Origin: a virus
Taxonomy: Duplodnaviria; Caudoviricetes
Length of the DNA stretch: 36,488 nt
Strand: one strand, 5' to 3'
Virus record (IMG/VR): IMGVR_UViG_3300044825_001479
Coordinates: 1-36,488 of that record
Shown: in pieces, positions 3,139-20,628 of the stretch
How positions within the stretch are numbered: the stretch's first letter is position 1
How the letters are laid out: the number at the start of each line of letters is the position of its first letter
Made by a program: the position numbers and the translations under genes
The notes under the pieces: generated by a model
What the model saw: only the letters and a program-made list of their open reading frames with translations
Databases searched by the model: none
Told to the model about the DNA's origin: nothing

Positions 3139-3894
3139 TCACTTCGAGATGCCGGTTGCGGTGGCAAGTCGTGCCGCCACCGCCTGTTCCATGTTGGCAG
3201 GCTTGCCTGGCGGAGGCTCGCCGCCGTTGTCGCCGCCGGAGCCCGATGCCCCGTTGGCGCCACCGCCCTTGCCGGGCTCGATCACGCCCTGGCCCTTGAA
3301 CTCGGGGTAGTCCTTGGCGATGGCCTCCATCACCTTGGCCATGGCCGCTGCGTCGACCACGCCGTCCTTGACCTCGACCTCGCCGTAGCCGGGAATGGTG
3401 GCGGCGATGGCGAGAGCGGCCGAGATGCGGTCGGGCTTGATGCCTGCGATGCCCGCCTGGATCGTGCCCTCGGCCCGTCGAAGCGTGGCGTCGGCCGTGG
3501 CGGTCGCTGATGCGGCCAACTCCTTGGCCTCGGCTGCCTCACGTTCGGCCTTCTGCTGGGCCGACTCGTTCTCGTGTTCGGCGTAGGCGCCGAGGTCCTT
3601 CTCCCAGCCCGCCCGAGCGGCGCCGATCCGCTTGTTGATCAGCGCATCGAACTCCGCCTGCGTCATGTTGACGGGCTTCTCGTCCTTGCCTCCCTCGGGA
3701 GCCGGAGCGCCGTCTGCGGGCGCTCCACCCGCCGGAGCCCCGCCAGCGGGCGCCGGGGCGCCTCCCGCCGGAGCGCCGTCCCCGGAGCCTCCACCAGCGG
3801 GACCTCCACCGCCGGATCCGGCGCCACCGTCGTTGTCGAACAACACCAGGTGAGCGAGGTTGGTCCATCGTGTGCGTAGGGTGTGCGTCATCAC
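3139..3894 (-). CDS. Capsid scaffolding protein
   Basis: Low-complexity GGAPA N-terminus, MTQAEFDALINKR motif, helical middle, YPEF near the end; lies between minor and major capsid genes. Confidence 0.8.
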   Translation of the reverse strand: MMTHTLRTRWTNLAHLVLFDNDGGAGSGGGGPAGGGSGDGAPAGGAPAPAGGAPAGGAPADGAPAPEGGKDEKPVNMTQAEFDALINKRIGAARAGWEKDLGAYAEHENESAQQKAEREAAEAKELAASATATADATLRRAEGTIQAGIAGIKPDRISAALAIAATIPGYGEVEVKDGVVDAAAMAKVMEAIAKDYPEFKGQGVIEPGKGGGANGASGSGGDNGGEPPPGKPANMEQAVAARLATATGISK

Positions 3895-3915: not shown

Positions 3916-5499
3916 CTAGGACAGCTCGGGAAGAACCCGCACATGAACAATCGTTCTGGACGTCAGTTCCTTGACGGCCGTCACTTCCATACGAGTCCCC
4001 CGAGCCAACAGGACTTCAGCTTCTTTGCCTGGGATCGACAGTCCTCGGACGCCGGGACCGGTATCGATCTGAAGAGTGACCAGGTTACTGAACTGGTTAG
4101 CTGCAGCCTTCGAGGTAGAAGTTGAGACAAACGCATCGTCTGTCAGCACTTGACCCACGGCGTCCTTGCCGAGGTCGAACAAGCGCTCACCTTCCGTCCC
4201 GCCCAGACCTCGATATAGCGTATCCGTCACCAGGTCAGCGTCCGCAATGGCCTGGTCCACGCCTGCCACCAGCGAATCCAACCGGTCTGCATAGTAGTCC
4301 TTGACGTGAGGCACAAGCTTGGACTCCTGCCCACGAAGGAGAGTGTTGATCGCCTCATAACCACTTTCCGACGTGTACTGGGTAACGGCATCAGATGGCG
4401 AGATAGCCTGAGGTGGAATCGACAGGTCGCCCCGTTCTGCCCGCTTGCGGAGCTTCGCCAGTTCGTTGGCTGACGGGTTCTTGCCGTGCATGGTTCGGTA
4501 CCGGTCCACCATGGTCTGGACTGCGTCATCGTTTGCGGCTCGCACCTTGGCCTGGACATGCTGTCGGACGGGCGAGTCACCGAATGGCTCTGTCGCTACG
4601 TCCTGGCGCTTGGCCTCCTGGACCTTGCGCTGAGCCTTGGTCTCAGCAGCACGCTGCTGCTCGCCTTCCAGCCCAGACTCAGACTTGAACCGCTTGGACA
4701 GGCCAGGGATAAAAGGCCGCAGGTCGTGAGTGCAGTTCGGGTGAAACAGTCCCTCTCTGGTGGCTTCCTTCACCGATGCCTTGGCCAGCTTCCGCTCTTC
4801 GGGTGTGAGCTGCGCCCCGTCGATGAACAGGATCTCGCCTTCCCACGGTCGGCACTTCTTGCACTCGTCGGGCGAGTCCGACACGATGACCAAGTGCCGT
4901 CCGTCGTCCAGGTACTGGTTGAGGCGACCGCCGACCATCGCCTGAGCAGTGGCGGTCCGGACAGCCATTTGAGCGTACGTACTCGCCTTCCACACTCGGC
5001 CCTTACTATCGATGAAGGCGCCGAGTCCCTGCCGAGCGAGCTTGAAGACGGTACGCTGCGCCGCCACTCTCGTAGTAGTGCTGCCAGCGGCGACTTGCGA
5101 TACGGTCGAGGCGACGACACGTCGGTATTGATCGTCGGTCGCCCTCAGGAGCTGGAAGTGCGTAGACCGAAGCTTAGTGATCGTCTGCTCGACCAAGACC
5201 TCGACCGCTCGTTGGTTGGTCTTGGACCCGAGGGTACCGGTTACCGATGGCGCAACCGCCTGCAAACTGTCTTTGGTCACTTTGGCGGCGGTGGCGTCCA
5301 GGCGGCCGATTCGAGCCTGGGCTTGCCGCCGGACTTCGCCAATCTCGGCCAGCTTGCCCTCTGCCCAGCCTGGGGTATCTACGCCTCTGGCCAGCCGCTT
5401 GGCCACCTGAGACTGGAGGTCCAACTCTGCAGCTTCGTAGACCGAGGCGACCCTACGGGCGATCCGGTAGGCCACCTCCGGATCGGCAACCGCCATCAT
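3916..5499 (-). CDS. MuF-type minor capsid protein fused to a C-terminal ADP-ribosyltransferase (VIP2/C3-like R-S-E) domain
   Basis: N-part has FIDSKGRVW, CKKCRPWEG, GLFHPNCTH. C-part has YT..GYEAINTLLR, LYRG, FVSTS, KEAEVLL. Confidence 0.88.
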   Translation of the reverse strand: MMAVADPEVAYRIARRVASVYEAAELDLQSQVAKRLARGVDTPGWAEGKLAEIGEVRRQAQARIGRLDATAAKVTKDSLQAVAPSVTGTLGSKTNQRAVEVLVEQTITKLRSTHFQLLRATDDQYRRVVASTVSQVAAGSTTTRVAAQRTVFKLARQGLGAFIDSKGRVWKASTYAQMAVRTATAQAMVGGRLNQYLDDGRHLVIVSDSPDECKKCRPWEGEILFIDGAQLTPEERKLAKASVKEATREGLFHPNCTHDLRPFIPGLSKRFKSESGLEGEQQRAAETKAQRKVQEAKRQDVATEPFGDSPVRQHVQAKVRAANDDAVQTMVDRYRTMHGKNPSANELAKLRKRAERGDLSIPPQAISPSDAVTQYTSESGYEAINTLLRGQESKLVPHVKDYYADRLDSLVAGVDQAIADADLVTDTLYRGLGGTEGERLFDLGKDAVGQVLTDDAFVSTSTSKAAANQFSNLVTLQIDTGPGVRGLSIPGKEAEVLLARGTRMEVTAVKELTSRTIVHVRVLPELS

Positions 5500-9578: not shown

Positions 9579-9902
9579 TTACTCTACCTCGACCCTAGGG
9601 CACACGGTGCATTGGGGGTCGCCGCACCGGTACCACCAGGGCCACACTGCATCGGGCATCTTGCCTATCATACAGGCGTATTTGTCGGCCGAGTCCTCGG
9701 GGATCCCATCCCTTTGGTACCGGCGCACTGTACGTACGTCGATGCCGAGTCGCTCTGCGATCGCACCGTGTCCGATCGGGTGCCCGTCTGCCGATTTGAC
9801 CGACGGAGGCCCGACCACGATCCCCATCGCGGCAGCTAGCCTGCTGAGCGGGAATCGCTTAGGTCGGTGGACCTCAAAGTCCGGTACTTCCGAATCCGGC
9901 AT
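9579..9902 (-). CDS. HTH DNA-binding protein (start uncertain)
   Basis: AIAERLGIDVRTVRRY HTH; C-terminal CxxxxCxxC. Confidence 0.65.
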   Translation of the reverse strand: MPDSEVPDFEVHRPKRFPLSRLAAAMGIVVGPPSVKSADGHPIGHGAIAERLGIDVRTVRRYQRDGIPEDSADKYACMIGKMPDAVWPWWYRCGDPQCTVCPRVEVE

Positions 9903-10701
9903 CGCCTCTCTCCGATGTCGACAGATCCCGGTGCTCGACTCGTTCGATACCCATTCCTGCAGCGTACGTCGGGAACGGCACGAGCTGAGCTAGACGCTCG
10001 CCTGGTTCGATGTGCTGCACCTTGCTGCCCACGTTGCGGACGATGACGAACATGTCGCCTCGGTACCCGGCGTCGATGACACTGGGGTTGACCAGGAGCC
10101 CTCGGTTTTTGAACGAGGACGACCTCCCGATCAGCAGCGCCCACATGCCGTATGGCCATTCCAATGCCACACCACACGGCACGTCCACGACTTCCCAGGG
10201 CCGCACCTGCAGCGTCTCGGCCCCGGCGTAGGCGAGATCGAACCCGGCGTCGTCCTGGTGTACGCGCAGGACCTCCCCATGCCCCGCCACCTTTGCCGAA
10301 TACCCCGACACCTCTGCCGCCGGTTCCTGTTCCAGCCAATGTACGGCTGAGGCCACGTCGGGAAACACCGGTACGTCCAGGCCCATGAGCGTGTAGCTCG
10401 TGTGGTCGTGCACCACGGCGACCGGGATCCCGCAGTCCAAGGCTCGCTTGATCTCGATCGGGACTCCGATGCTCGCCGTTCCCCGGGGCAGTAACGCCAA
10501 CACGGCATCGCTACTCTCAAGGGCCACGACGTTCACCAGCTCCGGCCAGTTCGTGTACTCGCCCTGCATATTGAACGCCTGGCTCGGATCGAACACCGAG
10601 AACCCAGCGCACTGGAGCCGCTCCTTGGCCTCGGCTCTCCAGGCGGTGACGTTCGTGTCCGTCCGCCCCTGATCGATCGGGCTTGCCAGGTAGATATTCA
10701 T
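9874..10701 (-). CDS. Fusion of a nucleoside-2-deoxyribosyltransferase/DNPH1-like N-glycosidase domain and a trimeric dUTPase-fold domain
   Basis: N-domain IYLASP, VFDP, SDAVLA, SIGVPIEI..A..CGIPV. C-domain has all five dUTPase motifs: AGFDL, GRSS, VIDAGYRG, GERLAQL, RGDAGFGSTG. Confidence 0.88.
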   Translation of the reverse strand: MNIYLASPIDQGRTDTNVTAWRAEAKERLQCAGFSVFDPSQAFNMQGEYTNWPELVNVVALESSDAVLALLPRGTASIGVPIEIKRALDCGIPVAVVHDHTSYTLMGLDVPVFPDVASAVHWLEQEPAAEVSGYSAKVAGHGEVLRVHQDDAGFDLAYAGAETLQVRPWEVVDVPCGVALEWPYGMWALLIGRSSSFKNRGLLVNPSVIDAGYRGDMFVIVRNVGSKVQHIEPGERLAQLVPFPTYAAGMGIERVEHRDLSTSERGDAGFGSTGL

Positions 10702-11048
10702 GGCCACCTTCCCTCCTGCTTGATGTACTGCGCCATGGTCGAGTACACGCCCAGGTCATGCCACGTGTCCTCGCTTGGCTGGTGTCCCTTGTACAGCGAG
10801 TCCATCACTCGCTGCATCTTACCGTACGCATATAGCGCACAGCCGATCTCCAGCGCCTCGGCATCGTTATACGGCCCGACATCGCCTCGGGCTCGCATAA
10901 ACACCCGGCCCATCGCTGCCAGCGAGTTCGATCCGTACTCCTCCGCCTTGGCTTGGATCGTTGGTGCGGTCGAGTCCACCAAGGCGTGCCACCAGGCGGT
11001 AAATCCCGAGAACGGATCTACGCACGCAGGTTCCAGGTGCTCGCTCAC
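10698..11048 (-). CDS. Small all-helical MazG-like (DUF1599-type) nucleotide-modification protein
   Basis: KAEEYG...GKMQRV...EDTWHDLGVYSTM pattern; translationally coupled to purZ. Confidence 0.6.
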   Translation of the reverse strand: MSEHLEPACVDPFSGFTAWWHALVDSTAPTIQAKAEEYGSNSLAAMGRVFMRARGDVGPYNDAEALEIGCALYAYGKMQRVMDSLYKGHQPSEDTWHDLGVYSTMAQYIKQEGRWP

Positions 11049-12115
11049 TTGAGCCTCCAGGCGATGGAGTTGGCGCCGGTCGTGTAGCCGTCGACCGTGA
11101 CCCCGCAGTCCGCCTCGACTGCCTGCAGGAACTTCGCCGCCCGCTCGGTCAGCTTACCCTCCCCGTCGGCCATCGTCGGGTCGATGTAATCGAGGAACGT
11201 GACCACCAGGTGGGTATGGGCCGACGGTGCCCCGTTGGCGATCATGGCCTTCTTGACGAGCACCGAGTCCCACTGTCCGATTCGCCTGGGTTTCTGCGTC
11301 ACGGTCGTGAGTTCCGGTCCCTGGATGTATCCGTCCGTGTACTCCTGCATGTGGTTCCAATCGACCTCGCCCCGCAGCGGGCCGGAGTTGCCCGCCACTC
11401 TGATCGGGAAAGTCCGGGCCACTACCCACACGTCCAGGCCCAGGTCACGCCGCCACGGCGAGATCCCGGCCATGGCCAGGAAGTCGATAGCTCTGCAGTC
11501 GCTGGAGGTGCAGTACGGATAGAACCCGGCGTGCAACCCGAGCCCGTATCCCTGGGTGCCTTCCACGATGACGCACTCGTTGAGCGCCAGCCGCTCGTTC
11601 AATAGCGTCGCTGTGTCGTTGCCGCCGTCGAAGTCCCAGATCGCTGCCGACCGATCCAGCCTCGCCATCCTGGCCTGGCCGATGCCCTTGGCGGTCGAGC
11701 CGAATCGGTGGTTGTAGTCGCTTCCGGCTTCGGCCTGCTTGTGGCTCTCCTCCAGGACGGTGGCCTGACCGTCGATCACCAGGCGCTCACTGACCTCGTA
11801 GCCCGCCTGGTCAAGCAGGTCGACCTCGTATTCAAGGACGGACTCGTCGATTTCGGACCCGGCGCCCAGCACGAGCTGAATCGAGTTGTCCACGACAGCG
11901 GCGACCGGGATTTGGCGAAGTGCGTACTTCACGCCGTCGATATGGCCGACCGCCGAGTGGCCTGCGTTAGGACCGGCCACTCGCACTGCGGTGACCGGGT
12001 ACCCGCTGTTGATCCGCCTGGCAGCGATCTGAGCGGTCACGTGACCCTTGGCTTCGCTCCCGAACTGACCACCGACCACGACGTCCAGCTGGCCGATCGT
12101 TGTATTCTCGCTCAT
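11045..12115 (-). CDS. purZ: PurZ (2-amino-deoxyadenylosuccinate synthase), PurZ0-like
   Basis: Short PurA homolog. GGQFGSEAKG has Ser in place of the catalytic Asp of GDEGKG. Also GPNAGH, GSTAKGIG, EGTQG, RTFPIRVAGNSGPL, TTVTQKPRRIG and C-terminal TFLD. Confidence 0.93.
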   Translation of the reverse strand: MSENTTIGQLDVVVGGQFGSEAKGHVTAQIAARRINSGYPVTAVRVAGPNAGHSAVGHIDGVKYALRQIPVAAVVDNSIQLVLGAGSEIDESVLEYEVDLLDQAGYEVSERLVIDGQATVLEESHKQAEAGSDYNHRFGSTAKGIGQARMARLDRSAAIWDFDGGNDTATLLNERLALNECVIVEGTQGYGLGLHAGFYPYCTSSDCRAIDFLAMAGISPWRRDLGLDVWVVARTFPIRVAGNSGPLRGEVDWNHMQEYTDGYIQGPELTTVTQKPRRIGQWDSVLVKKAMIANGAPSAHTHLVVTFLDYIDPTMADGEGKLTERAAKFLQAVEADCGVTVDGYTTGANSIAWRLK

Positions 12116-12151
12116 TATTGTGCCCTCCCGGGCTGTGTAGGGGCCTGCATC

Positions 12152-12610
12152 TTAGCGGCCCGCGTGATCTACTCGCAACTGATGGTAAGCCAAGTGGTAC
12201 TCGGCGTCGAGTGAGTGTTGGGTGCCTCCTTCCTTCCACGTCCAACCAAGCTGGGGCGCCACGGTCGCAATCGGCTTCTTGATCGGCGGGAGCTGTTCCT
12301 TGATCGGCGTATCGTTCGCCTTGCATAGCCACTTGATCGTGCCGATGACCTCGGCCGTCGGGACAGGCGACCATGCCTGCTGCTCCAGGAGCCACGGGTA
12401 GAGTCGGTATCCCTCGAAAATGACCAGCTCCACCGGATTGGCGCCCTTCTGCGCTTGGCGCAGGTTATCGACCAGGAAATCGAACAACTGGTCTGGCGTG
12501 TACGTGTCGACCCAGGACGCTGACTTGGGCTTCTTCACCTTCCCAGTGTCGTGCGATACCGCCACTCCACAGTGGACCTCGCCGGGGTCGATGGCGACGA
12601 TATAGCTCAC
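12152..12610 (-). CDS. RuvC-like Holliday junction resolvase
   Basis: GTG at 12610; IVAIDPG..HCGVA, VIFEGY, HSLDA acidic motifs. Confidence 0.75.
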   Translation of the reverse strand: MSYIVAIDPGEVHCGVAVSHDTGKVKKPKSASWVDTYTPDQLFDFLVDNLRQAQKGANPVELVIFEGYRLYPWLLEQQAWSPVPTAEVIGTIKWLCKANDTPIKEQLPPIKKPIATVAPQLGWTWKEGGTQHSLDAEYHLAYHQLRVDHAGR

Positions 12611-12792
12611 CGGAGATTCTTCCTGTGAACCTGTACGGCCTCGGGCCGGATACCCGTGTCCTTGATCCGGACCAGGACACCACAGTCGGCGCAGGTTCCC
12701 CGTCGCAGGCCCTGGGCGTAGTCCACGTCCTCTGGCGGGTCCAGGTCCAGGATCGGGTGGGAGCACATCAGGCGCCCTGACATCTCACTCAT
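12607..12792 (-). CDS. Small putative Zn-binding protein
   Basis: CSH...CADCG; overlaps both neighbours. Confidence 0.55.
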   Translation of the reverse strand: MSEMSGRLMCSHPILDLDPPEDVDYAQGLRRGTCADCGVLVRIKDTGIRPEAVQVHRKNLR

Positions 12793-12952
12793 GATCTAGC
12801 CTCTTCTTTCCGGTCGGGAAGGCAACCACGCCTCTATAGTAGTCCTCAAATGTCTGGCTCAGGATCGAGCCGATGCAGTCGGCCTGCGTCTCGTCGTCGT
12901 CGCTGACCGCCACTCCACAGTGGGCTGCTCCTGGGTCGACGGCGACGATCAC
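12785..12952 (-). pseudogene. Chimeric remnant ORF: resolvase N-terminus fused to duplicated polymerase C-terminus
   Basis: VIVAVDPGAAHCGVAVS resembles the resolvase start YIVAIDPGEVHCGVAVS. ETQADCIGSILSQTFEDYYRGVVAFPTGKKRLD is identical to the polymerase end. Confidence 0.8.
12798..12894. repeat. 97-bp perfect direct repeat, copy 1
   Basis: Identical to 13689-13785 (agcctcttctttccggtcggg...ggcctgcgtctcgt). Confidence 0.95.
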
Positions 12953-13677
12953 CCGTACCCACCTTCGTGCTCCGCTGGAACCCACAACGAATCGTGTTGC
13001 AGCCCTTGCTCTTCTCGTCGAGTCACCCCGCTGTTCGGTGAGAGCGTGAGACGCTGGACCGAAGTCGTGATCGGCACCCAGTGAGGCGGAGCCGAGAACT
13101 CCGACACAAAGACGTGAGCTCCCCGTCCGACCCACTCGTCCATTACCAACCAGAAGGCCGGGTGGTCAAAGCCTTTGGAGTCCCGGAACCCGACTCCAAC
13201 GTCGGCGTAAGGCGGGTCCGCGTAGACAACGGTACCGGCCTGCGGTTGCCACCACTCATACGACCGGTGTGAGAAACGGAGGTCCAGGCCGAGAAGACGA
13301 GCACGAGTCTTAGCTAGGCTGCGAGCAGATGTCGCCACCAGCCTCTCTGTGTAACCGCCGAACCACTTTCCTCCGAAGCTTGCTCCGAACCCGGCGAAAG
13401 CTCGCAGTGCGCTCGGCTCGGCGGTCTTCAGGTAAACGTACTCCTCCCGACTCAGCGACACGGGAGGCTCCCAGCCTCGCATAAGGGCCTGGTAGAGCAG
13501 GACTAGATCTTCGTTCACGTCGGAGGCCCGAGTCAACCCGAAGTGCGGAGCCATCACTTCCAGCATCGACCCGCCGCCGACAAAAGGTTCAAGATAACGC
13601 GCCCTCTCGGTTGTCGCCGCCAGGATGGCGGGCTTGAAGTGCTTCCGCTGTCGGAACTTTCCACCTACGTACTGCAT
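12949..13677 (-). CDS. DNA N6-adenine methyltransferase (D12/Dam-like class)
   Basis: MQYVGGK, YLEPFVGGGS (SAM binding), SDVNEDL, VVYADPPY (catalytic), FVSE. Confidence 0.9.
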   Translation of the reverse strand: MQYVGGKFRQRKHFKPAILAATTERARYLEPFVGGGSMLEVMAPHFGLTRASDVNEDLVLLYQALMRGWEPPVSLSREEYVYLKTAEPSALRAFAGFGASFGGKWFGGYTERLVATSARSLAKTRARLLGLDLRFSHRSYEWWQPQAGTVVYADPPYADVGVGFRDSKGFDHPAFWLVMDEWVGRGAHVFVSEFSAPPHWVPITTSVQRLTLSPNSGVTRREEQGLQHDSLWVPAEHEGGYG

Positions 13678-13678
13678 T

Positions 13679-15553
13679 TCACTTGTCCAGCCTCTTCTTT
13701 CCGGTCGGGAAGGCAACCACGCCTCTATAGTAGTCCTCAAATGTCTGGCTCAGGATCGAGCCGATGCAGTCGGCCTGCGTCTCGTTATCCACCTCGACCC
13801 ATACTGAGTCGTGGATCTGTAATACCATGACCCCGGGCCACCCAGCCTCGATCTTGATCATGGCGTCCTTCATCAGTTCAGCGACGCTGCCCTGTACTAC
13901 CTGATTCCACGCTTTGCGTGTCTCCTCCCCTGGTGCGAACCATCGCTGTCGATTGCCGGCAAGTCGAACCCAGCTGCGCCGCCGGGCCAGGTTCTCGGAT
14001 CGGTGGCCCATCGCCAACATCTTCGGCATCCGCTGCCCGTATAGCTTCAGCCAGCGATCCACCTGATCGACGGTGACCTGGAGCCCGGTCCACTTGGCGA
14101 TCTCGGCCTGGATGGTGCGGGCACCAGCCCCATACAGAATACCGAACCCGAGTCGCTTCGAGACGGCTCGGTACTTCTCCCATTCCGGGCTGTCCTGTTC
14201 GATTTCGAACACCAGGCGGCACGTGGCGTCGTGGGCGTCATAACCAGCGGCGAACTCGGCCAGCATGCGCTCCTCCTTGGCGATCGCTGCGGCCACTCGA
14301 AACTCGGCCTGGCTGAGGTCCAGCTCCCATAGCTGTTTGTCCTTGGGCGCTGTGAACAGATCCCGTACGGGGCGCACGCCGTCCACGAACTGGTAATCGT
14401 GCGGGATCGCCTGGAGCTGGATGCGCTCAACGCTGAGCCTCCCCGAGATCGTGCCTCGCCCGTCTTCGTTCTTGGTCTGGTGGAACACGCACCGGAGACG
14501 GCCGTCCTCCCCGGCCAACCTGGTCCATCCCTCGTACCACTTCGACAGGGCGGACCCCACCTTGACGTACTCGGCGTAATCGGCTGCTCCTGGTACGTTC
14601 TGCTCCACCAGGATGCGTACGCTTTCTTCGTCGATGCTGGGTTGACCGGTCTTGTCGCTGACCTTCGAGGGCGGGTAACCCAGCTCATCGAAGAAGTATC
14701 GTTTGGCACCCTGGGCGGTCGGTGGTCTGAACGGCAGGTCACGCCCGAGCTGGCCGTGCTTTACTTGGAGCTTGGCAGCCTCGACTCGAGCCTGTTGTAC
14801 GTCGAACCCGATACCCCGCATCTCCATTTTGGTCAAGGTCCGCATAAGCCCGATTTCCCGGTGTACGACCTCCCACGGGATCTGGCCCTCCTCGACCAGC
14901 TCGTACTGCTCCTGCCCTAGGCGCAGCGCCAGCTCAGCGTCCTTGGCTGCATACGGGCCGAGGATCTCCCACGGGGCCAGGTCGTATCGCTTCCGGTCCC
15001 GCTTGCCCGACACGCCGATGCTCTTGTGTGCAGGCTGGTCGACCCAGGCTCGGAGTTTCTGCTCAAGGTCCGCTTCTTCGTCGCCCCACAACCGACCGGC
15101 TGTGGCTTTGAGGGCCACGCTACTAAAGGGCCACAGTAGCGGCGAGATCACCGACGTATCCCAAACCACCTGGTTCGTCAAATCCCGGCCCGGAGCCGCC
15201 ACCTCTCTAGACAGGGACAGGCAAGGCCGGAGTCCTCGCTTCAGGAACATCAGGTCGAATTTGATATTGTGGCCGAGGAGACTGCACTCGCTCAGCCGGT
15301 CCAGTAGCTGGTTCCAGTCGGATGGCCCGAGGTTTATGTCGTCCAGACTGAACAGATCGGGCTGCACTCCCTTGGGAAGGTCCATCTTGTCCAGGCACCC
15401 GTGGTCGAACGGCAGTACCGAGGTCCGTAGCTCGCCGTCCTCGTGCCAGGCCAGCGAAACCACGCTGAGCCATTCTCGGTTGTCCGGGTGAAGGCCGCTC
15501 GTCTCGGTGTCGACGGCCACGATCGTGCCAGGCGCTGGTAGGTCAGCCAACAT
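13679..15553 (-). CDS. Family A DNA polymerase with 3'-5' exonuclease (candidate DpoZ)
   Basis: Exo motifs DTETSG, HNIKFD, YAAKD. Pol motifs A (DLSQAEFR), B (RAVSKRLGFGILYG), C (QIHDS). No 5'-3' exonuclease domain. Confidence 0.92.
   Translation of the reverse strand: MLADLPAPGTIVAVDTETSGLHPDNREWLSVVSLAWHEDGELRTSVLPFDHGCLDKMDLPKGVQPDLFSLDDINLGPSDWNQLLDRLSECSLLGHNIKFDLMFLKRGLRPCLSLSREVAAPGRDLTNQVVWDTSVISPLLWPFSSVALKATAGRLWGDEEADLEQKLRAWVDQPAHKSIGVSGKRDRKRYDLAPWEILGPYAAKDAELALRLGQEQYELVEEGQIPWEVVHREIGLMRTLTKMEMRGIGFDVQQARVEAAKLQVKHGQLGRDLPFRPPTAQGAKRYFFDELGYPPSKVSDKTGQPSIDEESVRILVEQNVPGAADYAEYVKVGSALSKWYEGWTRLAGEDGRLRCVFHQTKNEDGRGTISGRLSVERIQLQAIPHDYQFVDGVRPVRDLFTAPKDKQLWELDLSQAEFRVAAAIAKEERMLAEFAAGYDAHDATCRLVFEIEQDSPEWEKYRAVSKRLGFGILYGAGARTIQAEIAKWTGLQVTVDQVDRWLKLYGQRMPKMLAMGHRSENLARRRSWVRLAGNRQRWFAPGEETRKAWNQVVQGSVAELMKDAMIKIEAGWPGVMVLQIHDSVWVEVDNETQADCIGSILSQTFEDYYRGVVAFPTGKKRLDK
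13689..13785. repeat. 97-bp perfect direct repeat, copy 2 (3' end of polymerase gene)
   Basis: Identical to 12798-12894. Confidence 0.95.
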
Positions 15554-15626
15554 AGCTACTCCCCGGGGTACGGGCTCCGAAGAAAGATACCCACACAATG
15601 GACAACAACGACCCGAAAACTCGCCT

Positions 15627-15672
15627 CATAAGATACTTATATATACCGTACCCTACGTACCCTACGTACCCT
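15627..15672. repeat. AT-rich patch plus ~3 tandem 9-mers (CGTACCCTA); candidate replication origin
   Basis: cataagatacttatatata followed by cgtacccta-cgtacccta-cgtaccct in the gap between primase-helicase and polymerase. Confidence 0.55.
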
Positions 15673-15774
15673 GGAGGTTCTTCGCCCCGTCCTTCCGGGA
15701 TCTGGCAGGGTGCGTTCTCGGGTGCGCAGGGTATGATCTGCTCGGATATGTCCCTACTCGCCGTGGTCATGCGC

Positions 15775-18297
15775 TCATTCCTCGTGATTATGTTGCTCGA
15801 AGGGCAACATGCTGTCGGTTTCAGATGGCTCCGGGGTAAGGCCCATATGCACCCAGCCGGAGGCCTCCATGATGGCGTTCGTCAGGTCCTCGGGGATCTC
15901 CAGGCAGCGTAGCTGGTACCGGCCGTCCTTGTTGTCGGCGGTTCCGTACGCTGCTTTCCTGGTGACTAGTTCCAGACCCAGGCTCTGCGCCTGGAAGCGC
16001 ATCGCCTGCTCGGACCCGAGCTGCAGCTCCCGCTCGTCCCTGGCTTCCCTGCTCCACCACCGAGCGAGCTGCGGCAGGTTGACGTACAGGCGCCCGTCTT
16101 TCTGGAACCCGGCCAACGACGGACTGGGCTCGTTCGGCAGGAACGCACCATGTGCCATGTACCAGGCAGGCAAGACCCGAGTGATCATGTAGTGTTCGAC
16201 CTTGCGTTCCTTGGCTCGGTCCATGCACCAGGCATCGACACGCTCTGCGTGGATGCTGGTATCGAGCATCGAGTCCAGAACACGAGCGGCCATGCGTAGG
16301 ATCGCCCACTTGTCAGAGTTTCGACCGGAGCCCAGCCGGTAGGCTCGGAAGTCGTTCGCCATCTCGGCCCTGGCCAGGATAGCCTGGACCAGGTGGCCAG
16401 CAACGACGCCCAGGCCGTCGGGGTACCGGTCCTGGATGAGCACGATATCGTCCCACTGCGGGTAGTCGCCGTGGATCGAGCGCCGCTGCGTTGGCGAGCC
16501 GACCGTCATTGAGATCACTCGGTCGGCCATGGCCCGCTCGTTGTCGATGACCTGGAATCCCTCGCCTGTGATCAACACGGGCGACACCAGGCGCACGGTC
16601 ACCGAGTCGACGAAGCCCTCGCCGCCTTTCTTGGTCACCTCACCCTCGACGGTCGCCTGTCGCAGGAACTCCAGTCGCTGAGGCCCCAGGTCGGTGATGT
16701 CGTCCATCCACACGATGCCGGATCGATTGAGGCTCATCAGGTCCCTGAGGCTGGCCGCAGTGTAGGCACCGTGTCGCATCTTGGCACCCGACAGACCGAC
16801 CATCATCGGGAAGAACCCGGTACTCTTACCGGACTCGGACGGCGCCGAGATCACGACCATCGGGAACTGCGATGTCTGGCGCAGGATCTGGCCCTTGAGT
16901 ACGCACGCCACCCACCAGGCGCCAAACACCGAGCACACTGTCTCCTCGTGGAACGTGAGAACCTCCCGCAGCACGGCGAGTGCCTCCGCCTGGCTACCGT
17001 CGAATCCGTACTCGTAGGGCCGATCGGCGGTACGCATCGCTACGCCGACCGACTCCAGCGTGTCGTGGCCCTTGGGTCGGATCACGTGGGTCGGGGTCAC
17101 AAAGCCGTCGACCTCATCGTTCCAGCCGAGCTGGTCGGCGTATTTGAGGACCGGCGCATCTTGTGAGGTTAGGTACTTGAACATGCGGTCGACCTTGGAC
17201 AGGGATCCTCCAGCGCCGCTAGTGTTGTAGATCGTCGCCTGGTTGCGGATGCACCATAGGTTCATCTTAGGCGGGTGCGCCAGCGTCCTGGCCTCCAAGG
17301 TGCATTCCCGCTCGGTGCCGTCGCTGCGGTGGATCATCAGACGCCAGAAATCGAGCTCGCCTTCGTCGTTGAACACCACACCCAGGACGTGCGGATCGAA
17401 GTCCGACCAAGGAGCCTCGGTGTCCTCTTCGCCCGCCTTGCGTCCCTTCCTGGTGATAAGTAGCTGCTGGCCGTCTCCCCGGAGCCAACCGGTACTGGCG
17501 TCCGCTACTGGGTTCCCGCCGTTCTTGGCTCGCTCGTTGGACCAGATCGAGGTCGTGATCTTGGTGACCTCGGCCTCCTCCAGCGGATCGACCATGCTCC
17601 GGTTAGCCGACCATACCTGGGCGAGCCAGGTATCTTCGTACTTCTCCCGCTTGGCCAGGTGACCGGCCACCGAGGTCAACCATACATTCCGGCCTCCGGC
17701 CTCCGGCGGGTTCGCCAGGAGATCCGCCAGCTGGCTTCCTCCCGGTGCCCTCTCCGTTGCCGTCCCTTGCGTTCTCGGTTGGTCGCTGCTACCTACACCG
17801 CCGCCCTGTCTCAGATAACCGAGGAGAGCCTCCGACGGGGAGGACAGCGTATCGGCGCTAAGAGGGCAGTTCGGCACCCTGGGAACTCCGGTCGGGTGCA
17901 GGGAACCCGGACCCATGACTCCGCCGCCCTCGCCCCGTACGTCGAAGCTCAACTCGTCCTGGTGGACGGACCAGGACGGTAGCACTTCATCCGTTCTGAG
18001 ATAGAAATGGCGGCCTCGGGGAGTCTCGACCTGAAACGTCTCGTCCAGCTCGGGCCAGTTGTCCAGCCACCAATCGGACGTGTGCTGGTTATCCGCATCG
18101 ATGACCACCAGGCGAGACACGGAGCCGCAAAGCACCCATCCCTGGTCGGTCATCCTCGCCCATGCCTGCATCTTGGTGAGGCTGGGCGGTTCAGTCTGGT
18201 ACGGACGCCACTGGATGGAGGGAAGCGAGCTGAGGTCGGATTCTCCCGGCAGAACCACGATGCCGAGTTCGAGTAGCGTTTGCGTGTACGGGTTCAC
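15775..18297 (-). CDS. Bifunctional primase-polymerase (AEP) fused to PriCT-like and P-loop helicase domains
   Basis: LVVIDAD, TPRGRHFY, DVRGEGG..GPGSLHPTG; GGRNVWLTSVAG; Walker A APSESGKST and Walker B VWMDD. GTG at 18297 after AGGAG. Confidence 0.88.
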   Translation of the reverse strand: MNPYTQTLLELGIVVLPGESDLSSLPSIQWRPYQTEPPSLTKMQAWARMTDQGWVLCGSVSRLVVIDADNQHTSDWWLDNWPELDETFQVETPRGRHFYLRTDEVLPSWSVHQDELSFDVRGEGGGVMGPGSLHPTGVPRVPNCPLSADTLSSPSEALLGYLRQGGGVGSSDQPRTQGTATERAPGGSQLADLLANPPEAGGRNVWLTSVAGHLAKREKYEDTWLAQVWSANRSMVDPLEEAEVTKITTSIWSNERAKNGGNPVADASTGWLRGDGQQLLITRKGRKAGEEDTEAPWSDFDPHVLGVVFNDEGELDFWRLMIHRSDGTERECTLEARTLAHPPKMNLWCIRNQATIYNTSGAGGSLSKVDRMFKYLTSQDAPVLKYADQLGWNDEVDGFVTPTHVIRPKGHDTLESVGVAMRTADRPYEYGFDGSQAEALAVLREVLTFHEETVCSVFGAWWVACVLKGQILRQTSQFPMVVISAPSESGKSTGFFPMMVGLSGAKMRHGAYTAASLRDLMSLNRSGIVWMDDITDLGPQRLEFLRQATVEGEVTKKGGEGFVDSVTVRLVSPVLITGEGFQVIDNERAMADRVISMTVGSPTQRRSIHGDYPQWDDIVLIQDRYPDGLGVVAGHLVQAILARAEMANDFRAYRLGSGRNSDKWAILRMAARVLDSMLDTSIHAERVDAWCMDRAKERKVEHYMITRVLPAWYMAHGAFLPNEPSPSLAGFQKDGRLYVNLPQLARWWSREARDERELQLGSEQAMRFQAQSLGLELVTRKAAYGTADNKDGRYQLRCLEIPEDLTNAIMEASGWVHMGLTPEPSETDSMLPFEQHNHEE

Positions 18298-18318
18298 GAC
18301 TCTCCTAGTCGAATACGG

Positions 18319-18361
18319 GCTGGCCGGGTGTGGACCTGGGAGGAACACACACCCGGCCAGC
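18319..18361 (-). other. 14-bp perfect stem-loop between SSB and primase genes
   Basis: gctggccgggtgtg (18319-18332) pairs with cacacccggccagc (18348-18361); 15-nt loop. Confidence 0.75.
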
Positions 18362-18382
18362 GCCGATCATGGGAAGGTGGAC

Positions 18383-18838
18383 TCAGATCTCCGGTGAGTC
18401 AAGGCACGTCCCGACGGCCTGGTAGTCCTTCTCCTCGTCGGTGAGAGCCTCGATGCGGTTCACCACGTTGACGAGCTTCCCGAGCATCTTGCCCCGCTGG
18501 GCCGTCTCCTGGCCGACGATGATGGCGACCTCACGGCCGATCAGCTCGTCGGTGTCGGTGTCCGCCGGGACCTCGAAGGCAGCGAACACGGCGCCGAGAC
18601 GCCACTGCGCTGCCTCGCTCAGGGACGTGTTGTCCCACAGCTTGCGGTCGAAGAAGTCACCTTCTTCGTTCACGGCGTACTGCCACGACCAGTACGGGGC
18701 CTTGTCGGGAGCTGACGCATCCTTGGCGTTGACCTCCAGCAGGCGGCAGATGTATCGGCCTTCGGGCATCGGCCCGGGTCCACCGTCCTCTGCGGCACCT
18801 TCCGCCGCCTTGGCGGTCTTCTGGTTGAGCTTGGGCAT
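18383..18838 (-). CDS. Single-stranded DNA-binding protein (DUF669-like)
   Basis: PMPEGRY, RKLWDNTSL, DTDELIGREV; adjacent to a Sak4-like ATPase. Confidence 0.75.
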   Translation of the reverse strand: MPKLNQKTAKAAEGAAEDGGPGPMPEGRYICRLLEVNAKDASAPDKAPYWSWQYAVNEEGDFFDRKLWDNTSLSEAAQWRLGAVFAAFEVPADTDTDELIGREVAIIVGQETAQRGKMLGKLVNVVNRIEALTDEEKDYQAVGTCLDSPEI

Positions 18839-18842
18839 TGTG

Positions 18843-19850
18843 TCAGTCCTCCTGGGACACGACGTCGGCCTCATCGTCCGTCGTCTGGTTGGTTGGTGTG
18901 CTTGCTGCCTGAGCCAGGGCGGCTCGGGCTTCGATCTGGACGGTATCATTGTCCAGGTCGATCTTGTCCTCGACGTAGCCGACTATGCGGTCGAACGTCG
19001 GGGTGACCATGTTGGCCGGCAGAGCGCCGTAGCGATCCTTGGCCTTGAACCTCCCAGTCGGAACGGTGACGCCCGTGTACAGCGTCGTCTCTCCCGCCTG
19101 GATGGCCCGCATGTTGATAACGATGTCAGAGAAGGCGAAGAGATCGCCCTGCAGAGCCGGGGTTACGTTCGGCCCGATCTCCACCATGCCGTCCTCGTCC
19201 TTGCCCTTGCGGACATGGGCGGTGATGGCCAGGTGAATGGGGAGATCCCGCATCATGCGGTACAGTTCCCGGACCTGGTTGGTCATATCGCCGTAGTCGT
19301 CCTGATAGGTCTTCCACGCTTCCCTGACCTGGCCGCTGCGCTCTGCCTTGCGGACCGCCGTCTTGACCAGGGCGTCGATGAAGATCGGCAGGGTGGCGGT
19401 CATGCTGTCCCACACGATGCCGACGATCTCCTCGCCCTTGGCAATCCGATCCTTCACGTCCCAAAGAAGCTGCAGCATCATCGAGTACTCGATGTCTCGC
19501 CACGGCTCGATGTTCTCGATCGGGATGCCCTGGCGCCGCAGGGCACCGGGCTTCATTCCGGCTTCGGAGTCGATGGCGATGACCTTGCCGAGTCTGGCCA
19601 TAGCCAGGGCGCTCGTCGTCTTGGTCTTGCCCGGGTCCCCGTAGTACAGGACCCGAACGGCCTCCTTTTCGTCTGCCAGTGTGAGCCTCGCCTGGGTGGG
19701 CTTGGGCTCCGGTGGAGGACCGTCGCTGGCGCCGGGATTGGCGTCCGCACTCGGGTCTGGTTCGGACGGGTCAGGCACGTCAGGCGTACCCGTTGTCGTA
19801 GCGGGCCGGGTCGCTGCCCGCTTTGCCGCTGTTGCTTTCCTCGGTGGCAC
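18843..19850 (-). CDS. AAA ATPase, Sak4-like recombinase
   Basis: LYYGDPGKTKT, IDSEAG, VWDS, ITAH, AKDRYG; lies in the exonuclease/SSB module. Start GTG at 19850 is inferred. Confidence 0.82.
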   Translation of the reverse strand: MPPRKATAAKRAATRPATTTGTPDVPDPSEPDPSADANPGASDGPPPEPKPTQARLTLADEKEAVRVLYYGDPGKTKTTSALAMARLGKVIAIDSEAGMKPGALRRQGIPIENIEPWRDIEYSMMLQLLWDVKDRIAKGEEIVGIVWDSMTATLPIFIDALVKTAVRKAERSGQVREAWKTYQDDYGDMTNQVRELYRMMRDLPIHLAITAHVRKGKDEDGMVEIGPNVTPALQGDLFAFSDIVINMRAIQAGETTLYTGVTVPTGRFKAKDRYGALPANMVTPTFDRIVGYVEDKIDLDNDTVQIEARAALAQAASTPTNQTTDDEADVVSQED

Positions 19851-20628
19851 GATTGGCCTCCTCAGTGAGTGCACCTCGTACGGCAACGGACGCTGCGAAC
19901 GTGATACCCGGTAGGGCAACACGACGGACGACGCTGGTGCTCACGTCGCCCTCGTTCCATTGCTGGCCGCAGTAGCCAGAGATCATCTGAATGAAACCAG
20001 ACGCCAGCAGGTGGCAAGCCCGGTCGGCCGTAGCCAGGCGGAACATCTGGGTGGCGTAGGCCAGGTCGATCGACCGTTGGTAGACCTGGGCGGGTGCCAT
20101 CAGGAACGACTCGAACCCAAACTCTCGGGCGATGCGTTCCTGCATCACTGCCAGTTTCTGTTCGTCCCCGTCCATCAGGTCGAGCTGATCCTGGGCCGTG
20201 CCCATCGGGCCGACGATGCCCCGAAATGGAATCCAGTGCTGCCAGCCAAGGAGTGCAGCGTCTCCGGTCAACATGCCCATGTACTGGGCCGACATCGCCA
20301 TCTGGATCAGACTCATATTGTCTACGACGTCGGCGCTCGTCATCCCCAGGTGCAGAACCTCAGGTACGGCCGCTACGTGGAGGTACTCCTCCAGGCTGGC
20401 CTTGACATCGTGGCGGGTCTTGCGCTCCCGTCGCCGGATCGACTCCAGGTCGACGTCATTTTGCGCTCGGACCAGGGCGTCCCTGATCTCGTCGCTGTAC
20501 TCGGTGATTCCACACGACGCCTGGGCAAGCCAAACTGCCTGCCAGATCTCCCGATGGATGATCACTCGCTGCTGATCCGACCATAGCTCGAGGATGGCGG
20601 GGTCAACGTACCTCGTCAGTTCTTGCAC
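19780..20628 (-). CDS. purB: Miniature adenylosuccinate lyase (PurB)-like protein lacking both catalytic loops and the C-terminal domain
   Basis: Has TRY..ELWS, RERKTRHDVKA, HLGMTSADVVDN, RGIVGPMGTAQDQLDL, QVYQRSID, QWNEGDVSTSVVRRVALP. No GRxH or SSxMPxKxN motif; 282 aa. Confidence 0.85.
   Translation of the reverse strand: MQELTRYVDPAILELWSDQQRVIIHREIWQAVWLAQASCGITEYSDEIRDALVRAQNDVDLESIRRRERKTRHDVKASLEEYLHVAAVPEVLHLGMTSADVVDNMSLIQMAMSAQYMGMLTGDAALLGWQHWIPFRGIVGPMGTAQDQLDLMDGDEQKLAVMQERIAREFGFESFLMAPAQVYQRSIDLAYATQMFRLATADRACHLLASGFIQMISGYCGQQWNEGDVSTSVVRRVALPGITFAASVAVRGALTEEANRATEESNSGKAGSDPARYDNGYA

Follow-up and report, generated by a model that had tools for sequence, protein, structure and literature searches.

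The locus raises the question of how a phage that encodes a 2-amino-deoxyadenylosuccinate synthetase, and whose only PurB homologue is devoid of the catalytic parts of that enzyme, may complete the route to 2-aminoadenine (Z) DNA. The window, that is the whole stretch of 36,488 nucleotides that was analysed, belongs to the Caudoviricetes record IMGVR_UViG_3300044825_001479, and all genes examined in its 9874-20628 region are carried by the minus strand (Table 1). The first-pass annotation had proposed that in this phage dATP removal and the lyase step are solved differently from the described pathways, or that a base other than plain Z is made. The PolA, adenine methyltransferase (MTase) and mini-PurB genes on which this proposal drew proved to be real, and in L010, a contig of a related species, the gene order of the replication block is identical. 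CheckV rated the record 76% complete; because head-tail genes are found at both of its ends and related contigs measure 34.6-35.3 kb, little of the genome is probably missing. No tRNA genes were found.

Table 1. Features of the purZ0 region, with positions in the window
Feature	Position	Strand	Basis
DmtZ-DutZ fusion (NDT-family dAMP hydrolase/transferase and trimeric dUTPase-like dATP/dGTP pyrophosphatase)	9874..10701	-	Pfam, residue match; ATG at 10701, end at 9874
Conserved uncharacterised all-alpha protein directly after purZ0, 116 aa	10698..11048	-	homologue of Ghobes gp51 and Archimedes gp51
PurZ0-type 2-amino-deoxyadenylosuccinate synthetase	11045..12115	-	motif, NCBIfam, PDB match
RuvC/RuvX-like resolvase candidate	12152..12610	-	matches are PHROGs of unknown function; duplicated start fragment gives a weak RuvX match
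Copy 2 of 100-nt direct repeat (duplicated polA 3' end), closing the MTase insert	12795..12894		99% identical to 13686-13785, spacing 891
Dam-like (D12 class) DNA methyltransferase, dispensable cassette	12949..13677	-	Pfam MethyltransfD12, 1.2e-9
Family A DNA polymerase, DpoZ-like	13679..15598	-	NCBIfam best family, PolA identity
Primase-polymerase/helicase, SSB-like gene and Sak4-like recombinase	15775..19922	-	replication block between polA and mini-purB
Mini-PurB: domain 1 and half-length helical bundle	19780..20628	-	without C2 His hairpin, C3 Ser loop and domain 3

The synthetase scored 301.6 bits with NCBIfam NF038379, above the cut-off of 300, and its GGQFGSEAKG motif places a Ser at the position of the catalytic Asp13 of PurA. 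The best PDB match was 7VF6 (E 8e-76), compared with E 1e-29 for 6FKO, the phiVC8 enzyme, and 8e-19 for 7ODX. The protein is 46% identical to Archimedes gp50 and, judged by similarity rather than by a tree, is of the PurZ0 type, nearer to the PurZ0 of Archimedes and Ghobes than to the PurZ of phiVC8 and S-2L. The polymerase found its best NCBIfam family in phage_DpoZ_2 (264 bits, under the cut-off of 350) and is 34% identical to Archimedes PolA.

No HD_3 match was present in the record (76% complete by the rating above), in agreement with the first-pass annotation, which saw no HD-domain DatZ in the window. Its absence is expected, because in PurZ0 phages dATP is removed by DmtZ and DutZ. In fact, DutZ converts dATP and dGTP to monophosphates and DmtZ cleaves dAMP, so that dATP is destroyed (Poubanne et al., 2026; PMC12884076); dutZ occurs in 98 of 98 PurZ0 genomes and the fusion in 77 of the 98 (PMC12884076). 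The supposition that dATP removal differs from the DatZ route was right, but this solution had already been published as DutZ/DmtZ. The fusion of the window was recognised by Pfam as dUTPase (3.8e-18) and, below the cut-off, as NDT (4.6e-5). Residues Y6, D12, P57, N77 and E103 of Ghobes DmtZ are all matched, being invariant in the six aligned proteins, and the lid Trp124 is replaced by Tyr. The DutZ domain shares IDAGYRG with Ghobes DutZ (39% identity) and falls within the purZ0 cluster. Full-length matches to the fusion occur in 110 phage records, with Arthrobacter phages in the top rows.

The first-pass annotation had also described purZ, a MazG-like gene and the fusion as translationally coupled. 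The successive 4-nt overlaps (GTGA, ATGA) that join purZ, the 116-aa ORF and the fusion fit such coupling, but the MazG-like label is weakly backed. No Pfam match of the 116-aa protein passed the cut-off, PDB sequence and Foldseek searches returned nothing, matches to viral structures were weak (E above 0.09, TM about 0.5-0.6), and 2P06 (AF_0060, a MazG-like protein) was tied (Z 6.2, rmsd 3.4, 84 aligned) with unrelated helical matches. A matching ESM Atlas cluster carries DUF1599 on 14% of its members (score 0.93), and a four-helix fold is common to this protein and the all-alpha Nmad1, DUF1599 and DUF6378 proteins. These weak links make it possible that the protein is a dGTP/dATP pyrophosphohydrolase of the Nmad1/DUF1599 kind. 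No profile similarity was detected by hhalign to the DUF5664 gene that occupies the same slot in phage DrRobert. The invariant residues of the family are K34, Y38, Y73, K77, R80, D94, D98 and Y102.

On the basis of its genes, the phage very probably follows the published PurZ0 route to ordinary Z DNA. DutZ, possibly together with the 116-aa protein, would turn dGTP and dATP into monophosphates and DmtZ would cleave dAMP, as their homologues do. PurZ0 would then convert dGMP and aspartate to dSMP, a reaction established for homologues, with the specificity for dGMP being predicted here. In a third step dSMP must lose fumarate, and finally the DpoZ-like polymerase would insert dZTP.

The MTase passes its Pfam cut-off with intact FxGxG and DPPY motifs, its best phage match is in the purZ0 phage Sucha (48%), and it circulates between two purZ0 species. 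These observations would favour the production of a modified Z, either N6-methyl-Z made by the MTase or succinyl-Z kept by means of a blocked lyase step. Against this stands the distribution of the gene. The 891 nt of the MTase insert are missing from one contig of run X3, and in the L010 species, 735 nt are found in place of 181 nt at the same site in two of four runs. The MTase is a swappable cassette, present or absent within both related species, and not a core part. In run X1, the contig holding the repeat had a depth of 14, below the expectation for two copies. Moreover, 123 records from phages of many different hosts contain a match to the MTase. Co-occurrence with purZ, by which the accessory genes were to be judged, holds for the 116-aa gene (37 of 45 purZ0-like loci vs. 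0 of 35 other purZ loci) and for PurB (16 of 45 vs. 1 of 35), but not for the MTase (0 of 45 purZ0-like loci). In this reading the MTase is a passenger. As no hint of succinyl-Z comes from a kinase or polymerase, and no positive evidence was found for the earlier suggestion of a base other than plain Z, a modified Z is highly improbable.

The remaining step is the loss of fumarate. The similarity of the mini-PurB to adenylosuccinate lyases falls into three distinct segments (PDB 4NLE, E 2.6e-39), and the alignment shows that both the C2 catalytic-His region and the C3 SSxMPxKxN catalytic-Ser loop are deleted. The active site of PurB is built by C1, C2 and C3 from three monomers, the catalytic His lying in C2 and the Ser in C3 (PMC13539675; PMC6301967), and substitutions of His159 and Ser289 abolish the activity (10.1101/2025.08.15.670494). 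The mini-PurB is predicted, with good probability, not to be a working lyase alone. As to a split purB, no C3 motif was found in the six frames of the window and of the contigs L001, L320 and L010, where the C2 pattern gave loose matches that were short and chance-like; likewise, the window and G001 contain elsewhere no C3 motif, no PurB-like C2 segment and no Lyase_1 match. The earlier idea that the lyase step is solved differently is plausible in that the PurB found here is without catalytic parts; a phage PurB as such was already known in PurZ0 phages.

The protein belongs to a family of 71 unnamed minis with a median length of 264 aa, compared to about 475 for full-length PurB. [RK]HD is kept in all 71, and the C2 and C3 motifs in none (0/71 each), an absence that is partly by construction, since the family was chosen by short length. 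The column comparison gave 53 columns conserved in both minis and actinobacterial-type PurB, among them H73/D74, T97/S98, Q181, S232 and R236. Another 102 conserved PurB columns, containing all of C2, C3 and domain 3, are deleted in the minis. A further 85, among them helix-1 ENVEQLQ, are retained in the minis but lose the conservation seen in full-length PurB. The domain 3 lid is gone, minis mostly ending 28-40 residues after WNEGD (median 160 in full-length PurB). As judged from these columns, the minis keep the nucleotide pocket of one subunit, and what was deleted are the parts donated by neighbouring subunits. With respect to L010, the mini-PurB shows dN 0.38 and dS 1.11, dN/dS being about 0.34 with dS near saturation, and the gene is under purifying selection. 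A pseudogene or artefact was rejected considering this ratio and the 71 diverse homologues with the same cut points.

The AlphaFold model of the mini-PurB is confident (pLDDT 89, pTM 0.87), and its best structural match is mycobacterial PurB (Z 26.8, rmsd 6.6, 275 aligned). A confident fold of the chain alone, with pocket residues conserved while many other columns vary, is what would be expected of a stand-alone nucleotide-binding protein, monomeric or homo-oligomeric, able to bind or sense dSMP, S-AMP or dAMP but devoid of catalytic activity; dSMP channelling or nucleotide shielding would be examples of its role. However, stoichiometric binding steers metabolic flux poorly, and such a role would leave unexplained why minis were derived from cellular-type PurB more than once, with identical cut points, which makes this function unlikely. 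The invariance of both mini histidines (His73 and His93) could point instead to a minimal lyase working on its own, or to a novel enzyme, that would process dSMP by way of the retained His73, His93, Lys76, Glu80 and Asp100. 2,6-Diaminopurine may be a better leaving group than adenine, and the genomic role would be the same as that of the intact PurBs of other PurZ0 phages. Yet no new conserved polar residue substitutes the lost His or Ser, the mini-specific conserved residues being only M1 and L117, plus the change of R102 to Ala, and the connectors at the deletions are variable; we consider such an enzyme quite improbable.

In the phylogeny, the mini-PurB branches with actinobacterial-type cellular PurB, whereas P0245, which has the same three deletions, is nested in Planctomycetaceae-type PurB (100/99 support), and the AU test rejects a single origin of the minis (p-AU 3e-7). 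The same deletions arose at least twice, both origins being from cellular-type PurB, and P0151 is a candidate for a third origin. The Streptomyces protein P0152, whose deletions are partial, was dropped from the family.

The link of the minis to purZ rests on three contigs. The gene for purZ0 is present in all three that are long enough to tell (the window, L001 and L010), two of which are close relatives; the remaining mini-bearing loci end before the purZ region, including L002, an uninformative record without purZ that ends about 1.1 kb past the exonuclease. With so few informative contigs, and with a distance of 7.7 kb between purZ0 and the mini-PurB gene, which is surrounded by exonuclease and Sak4 genes, the protein might be unrelated to Z, a gene of the siphovirus lineage that shares genomes with purZ0 by chance. 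This is very unlikely, given the three out of three contigs, the enrichment of PurB near purZ0, and the rarity of the gene: in 50,697 phage records the window mini-PurB had 5 matches, all unannotated and none covering more than 80% of its length. No cultured phage with a mini was found among these records. Six plasmid records matched, three of them annotated purB; in 120 loci of genome contigs, from 11 of 64 parts, no mini was recognised, the matches being full-length or interrupted cellular PurB, and further viral scans yielded neither an additional mini nor the neighbourhood of P0245. Because none occurs in 81 purZ-selected IMG/VR loci or in 49 whole records, the mini-PurB is a minority variant. 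No paper on a truncated or inactive phage PurB was found in a literature search that left most subscription journals outside its reach.

Our main reading, to which we assign a probability of roughly 0.4, is that the mini-PurB would join host PurB as a putative pocket-only subunit and bias the host enzyme toward dZMP. In a mixed tetramer, the phage pocket together with the host His, Ser and lid would make complete sites, whereas sites with the host pocket would miss a donated part and be dead; as a result, host PurB would shift from AMP toward dZMP. The universal retention of [RK]HD, the loss of C2 and C3 and the recurrence of the deletions argue for it, and subunit complementation occurs between PurB mutants. 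Moreover, the intact PurB of other PurZ0 phages suggests that the lyase step is worth boosting. Against it, halving the helical bundle strips away much of the interface by which the tetramer is normally held, the 85 variable columns point the same way, the long branches of the minis (0.5-1.5) suggest something other than a close fit to a host partner, and mixing could just as well inactivate all four sites. The small number of contigs behind the purZ link and the rarity of the minis weigh on the same side. A rival reading is a dominant-negative inhibitor, which would enter host PurB tetramers and stop AMP synthesis, lowering dATP and sending IMP to the guanine branch needed for G and Z. Recurrent deletions of the donated catalytic parts, and a gene placed upstream of the replication genes and away from purZ0, would suit an inhibitor. 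But the phage needs lyase activity on dSMP and has no intact PurB of its own, PurB is also required for SAICAR, upstream of IMP, and a near-invariant pocket would be unneeded, so that inhibition appears distinctly unlikely. Returning to co-assembly, the wider proposal, that Z-phages have more than once trimmed a captured purB until only a pocket-bearing subunit was left, which enters the host tetramer, borrows its His, Ser loop and lid, turns an AMP-making enzyme into a dZMP-making one and silences the native sites, is more tentative, and we regard it as doubtful.

If the mini-PurB reprograms host PurB, a virus would here rewire metabolism by exchanging no more than that half of a shared active site which sets specificity, and engineered Z-DNA cells would gain a compact means of raising dZTP. 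Should it do no more than bind nucleotides, it would still be an unnamed, convergently evolved and catalysis-stripped member of the fumarase/lyase superfamily that is directly testable.

Compared to actinobacterial PurB (PDB 4NLE, 9OO0), the mini-PurB has in common domain 1, TSxD, RGxxGxxGT, Q..R, WNEGDVSxSVVRR and the fold (Z 26.8), but is without about 45 residues around C2, about 40 around C3, and domain 3. TSRD, found in 111 of 132 full-length PurBs, is TSAD in 62 of 72 minis, and the N-terminal RY is kept in 4 of 72. PurB-like adenylosuccinate lyases are annotated in the cultured PurZ0 phages Archimedes (gp38), Ghobes (gp36) and Hiyaa (gp76), where they are full-length, and in Galactica (gp75); like the window, these phages encode a PurB homologue in a PurZ0 genome. 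The proteins are however 365-461 aa long where seen, against about 260 aa for the mini. The motifs of the His and of the Ser loop, both absent from the mini, are retained by the relatives of these proteins in IMG/VR (14 of 14 complete ORFs). With respect to the pathway of Arthrobacter phage Wayne and Gordonia phage Ghobes, composed of PurZ0, DmtZ-DutZ, DUF5664-1 and DpoZ (PMC12884076), the window shares PurZ0, the DmtZ-DutZ fusion, in which the five DmtZ residues examined are all present, the absence of DatZ and a family A polymerase. Unlike that pathway, it is without DUF5664, the slot after purZ0 being taken, as by Ghobes gp51, by the uncharacterised 116-aa protein, and it adds the dispensable MTase and the mini-PurB. 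Most of the gene set is already published and the rest of the cluster is a fresh example of that pathway; the mini-PurB is its only new part.

The 36.5-kb window (GC 60-68%) is siphovirus-like; its recognisable genes, all on the minus strand, comprise head, tail, lysis and replication modules, and its best matches among public runs were freshwater metagenomes, of which two are possible sources of the DNA. Head-tail genes lie at both ends, related contigs measure 34.6-35.3 kb, and CheckV gives a completeness of 76%. Every gene listed in the first-pass annotation was found. purZ and the 116-aa ORF share 4 nt, as do the 116-aa ORF and the NDT/dUTPase fusion; PolA, a Dam-like MTase and the short PurB lie upstream. 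The annotation had also seen no HD-domain DatZ, and no HD_3 domain was found in this 76%-complete record.

Features of the window, with positions in nucleotides
Feature	Position	Strand	Remark
Gly/Ala/Pro linker of scaffold-like gene	3701-3815		imperfect short GC-rich repeats
Minor capsid protein (Phage_min_cap2)	3916-5499	-	ADP-ribosyltransferase domain fused C-terminally (Pfam 1.4e-11)
NDT/dUTPase fusion (DmtZ-DutZ)	9874-10701	-	
116-aa ORF	10698-11048	-	
purZ	11045-12115	-	overlaps 116-aa ORF by 4 nt
Chimeric ORF remnant	12785-12950	-	44 nt of a resolvase-like start (86% match to 12558-12601) fused with the duplicated polA end
MTase	12949-13677	-	
PolA	13679-15598	-	
mini-PurB	19780-20628	-	

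The window PurZ scores above the NCBIfam PurZ cut-off and carries a Ser where PurA has an Asp; its nearest PDB entry is 7VF6, in which the aligned sequence corresponds to that of Archimedes gp50. According to Poubanne et al. (2026; PMC12884076), DutZ hydrolyses dATP and dGTP, DmtZ cleaves dAMP and moves the deoxyribose phosphate onto 2-aminoadenine (Z), and PurZ0 genomes carry dutZ (98/98) and dmtZ (85/98), fused in 77/98. All five DmtZ residues reported there as tested are kept by the window fusion protein, as is the DutZ motif, and a 2025 preprint (10.1101/2025.10.22.683976) also names an NDT as a pathway component. Since this route is published and the window protein has the matching residues, the absence of datZ needs no new explanation: dATP removal would indeed be solved differently, as had been proposed, by DmtZ-DutZ instead of DatZ, but this solution is already described in PMC12884076. 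The window polymerase is DpoZ-like, with a score under the NCBIfam cut-off. Judged by sequence, the Z pathway of the window is the known PurZ0 system.

Co-occurrence with purZ, which the first-pass annotation had proposed as a check, was observed in IMG/VR loci split at 40% identity to the window PurZ, our proxy for "purZ0-like". The 116-aa gene was present in 37 of 45 purZ0-like and 0 of 35 other purZ loci, at most about 410 nt from the purZ match, and a PurB lay within 10 kb in 16 of 45 and 1 of 35, respectively. Matches to the 116-aa gene occur in 31 phage records, none of them from Arthrobacter phages, and all 30 matches listed are annotated as "hypothetical". In the one Arthrobacter phage checked, the slot is occupied instead by DUF5664, a demonstrated dATP/dGTP pyrophosphatase. 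The 116-aa family conserves K/Y/K/R/D/D/Y residues and has weak links to Nmad1, DUF1599 and DUF6378; no family test was passed (Pfam, PDB sequence and structure searches, hhalign against DUF5664). The slot, the conserved residues and the weak links suggest that this protein may do the same job as DUF5664.

The MTase, which had been counted as a member of the Z system, lies inside an 891-nt segment bordered on both sides by a 100-nt repeat of the polA end (99%). One contig in sequencing run X3 skips this segment exactly, and in two wastewater-type runs about 810-830 nt of it are matched by contigs that show 14 differences. In the species of metagenomic locus L010, which itself is without the MTase, the equivalent site holds 181 nt or a 735-nt alternative (the latter in two of four runs examined), and in a third run a loose contig end runs into the MTase start. 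The X3 skip and the variation at the L010-species site therefore indicate that neither of the two purZ0 species needs the cassette, which moves between them, and that the MTase travels as a passenger. Its best phage match is another purZ0 phage. The chimeric remnant marks the recombination junction of the insert.

The mini-PurB, a half-size adenylosuccinate lyase homologue, aligns to actinobacterial PurB as three pieces; its predicted model folds well, with mycobacterial PurB as top structural match. Choosing short proteins that matched in one stretch retained 23 of 29 from a first search and 49 from a second (72 in total), and removal of one Streptomyces protein with partial deletions (P0152) left 71 minis of 234-381 aa (median 264), a family that forms a nameless 78-member cluster in the ESM Atlas. 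With respect to full-length PurB, the TSxD-to-RGxxG spacing decreases from 85 to about 40, the QxxxR-to-WNEGD spacing from 85 to about 45 and the C-terminal tail from 160 residues to about 33. The cuts take out the C2 His hairpin, the C3 loop and domain 3 (the lid), while the pocket residues are retained. According to PMC13539675, PMC6301967 and 10.1101/2025.08.15.670494, the active-site regions C1, C2 and C3 are contributed by three monomers, and the His and Ser are catalytic. The Streptomyces protein that was left out, P0152, is a cellular PurB of 348 aa in which C2 and C3 are likewise lost through partial deletions.

A first tree placed 38 of 39 minis together, with weak support, beside actinobacterial-type PurB; a second contained a clade of 17 minis (support 96/98). 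P0245, encoded on a contig of 35.2 kb, shares all three deletions and nests within Planctomycetaceae-type PurB, to which it is about 50% identical. One origin for minis including P0245 was rejected, the second origin being a single sequence, with its gene neighbourhood unseen, whose composition departs from that of the alignment. P0245 thus appears to be an independent mini-PurB of Planctomycetaceae type.

The deletions remove the parts that a PurB subunit donates to its neighbours and leave those used by its own pocket; from motif order, C2, C3 and domain 3 would sit together at a single end of the helical bundle. A protein of this kind would most simply serve by joining host PurB in a mixed tetramer, where phage pockets would work with host catalytic parts and host pockets would be left incomplete. 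This reading agrees with cellular-type PurB having repeatedly been the source of minis and with the subunit complementation that occurs between PurB mutants. However, half of the helical bundle is missing and many non-pocket columns are variable among minis, and the protein may instead be a pure inhibitor, a stand-alone binding protein or a minimal lyase.

Of the 31 loci found by a metagenome scan, 15 contain a mini and one a partial mini; several appear to come from the same phages. The purZ region is covered only in the window, in L001 (also retrieved as L026, L035 and L190) and in L010. Each of these three carries purZ0 together with the 116-aa gene and DmtZ-DutZ, so that the link between mini-PurB and Z is consistent but thin. 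Most other mini loci have window-like exonuclease and/or Sak4 neighbours and end before that region. Intact PurB was absent from the window and from G001 (loci L001 and L320). G001 is a 93%-complete phage with purZ0 and mini-PurB; it gives no tblastn match to the window PolA and encodes a Toprim/AAA_25 primase-helicase, WhiB and a C5 cytosine methylase.

IMG/VR phage PurBs have the His and Ser-loop motifs in 14 of 14 complete ORFs aligned, two further ORFs being interrupted by contig ends, and a whole-record search (50 of 121 loci, 49 records) gave nine matches, all open frames of 391-553 aa. At L051, L072, L073, L080, L083 and L106, a short PurB of intact type (about 365 aa in complete copies, domain 3 nearly absent) directly adjoins a 116-aa family member. 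In the full-length actinobacterial-like phage PurBs of L003, L078, L159-L162 and L168, the Arg of TSRD is replaced (TSSD, TSHD, TSCD, TSAD), a replacement shared with the minis and possibly a change of substrate specificity. No description of a catalysis-stripped phage PurB was found in the mainly open-access literature covered, Z-pathway papers included. The lyase step had been proposed to differ, which is plausible with a mini-PurB devoid of C2, C3 and lid, but phage PurB as such is already known, with PurB-like lyases annotated in Archimedes, Ghobes, Hiyaa, Galactica and relatives. What is new here is the mini-PurB, an unreported, convergently evolved accessory of the known PurZ0 system.
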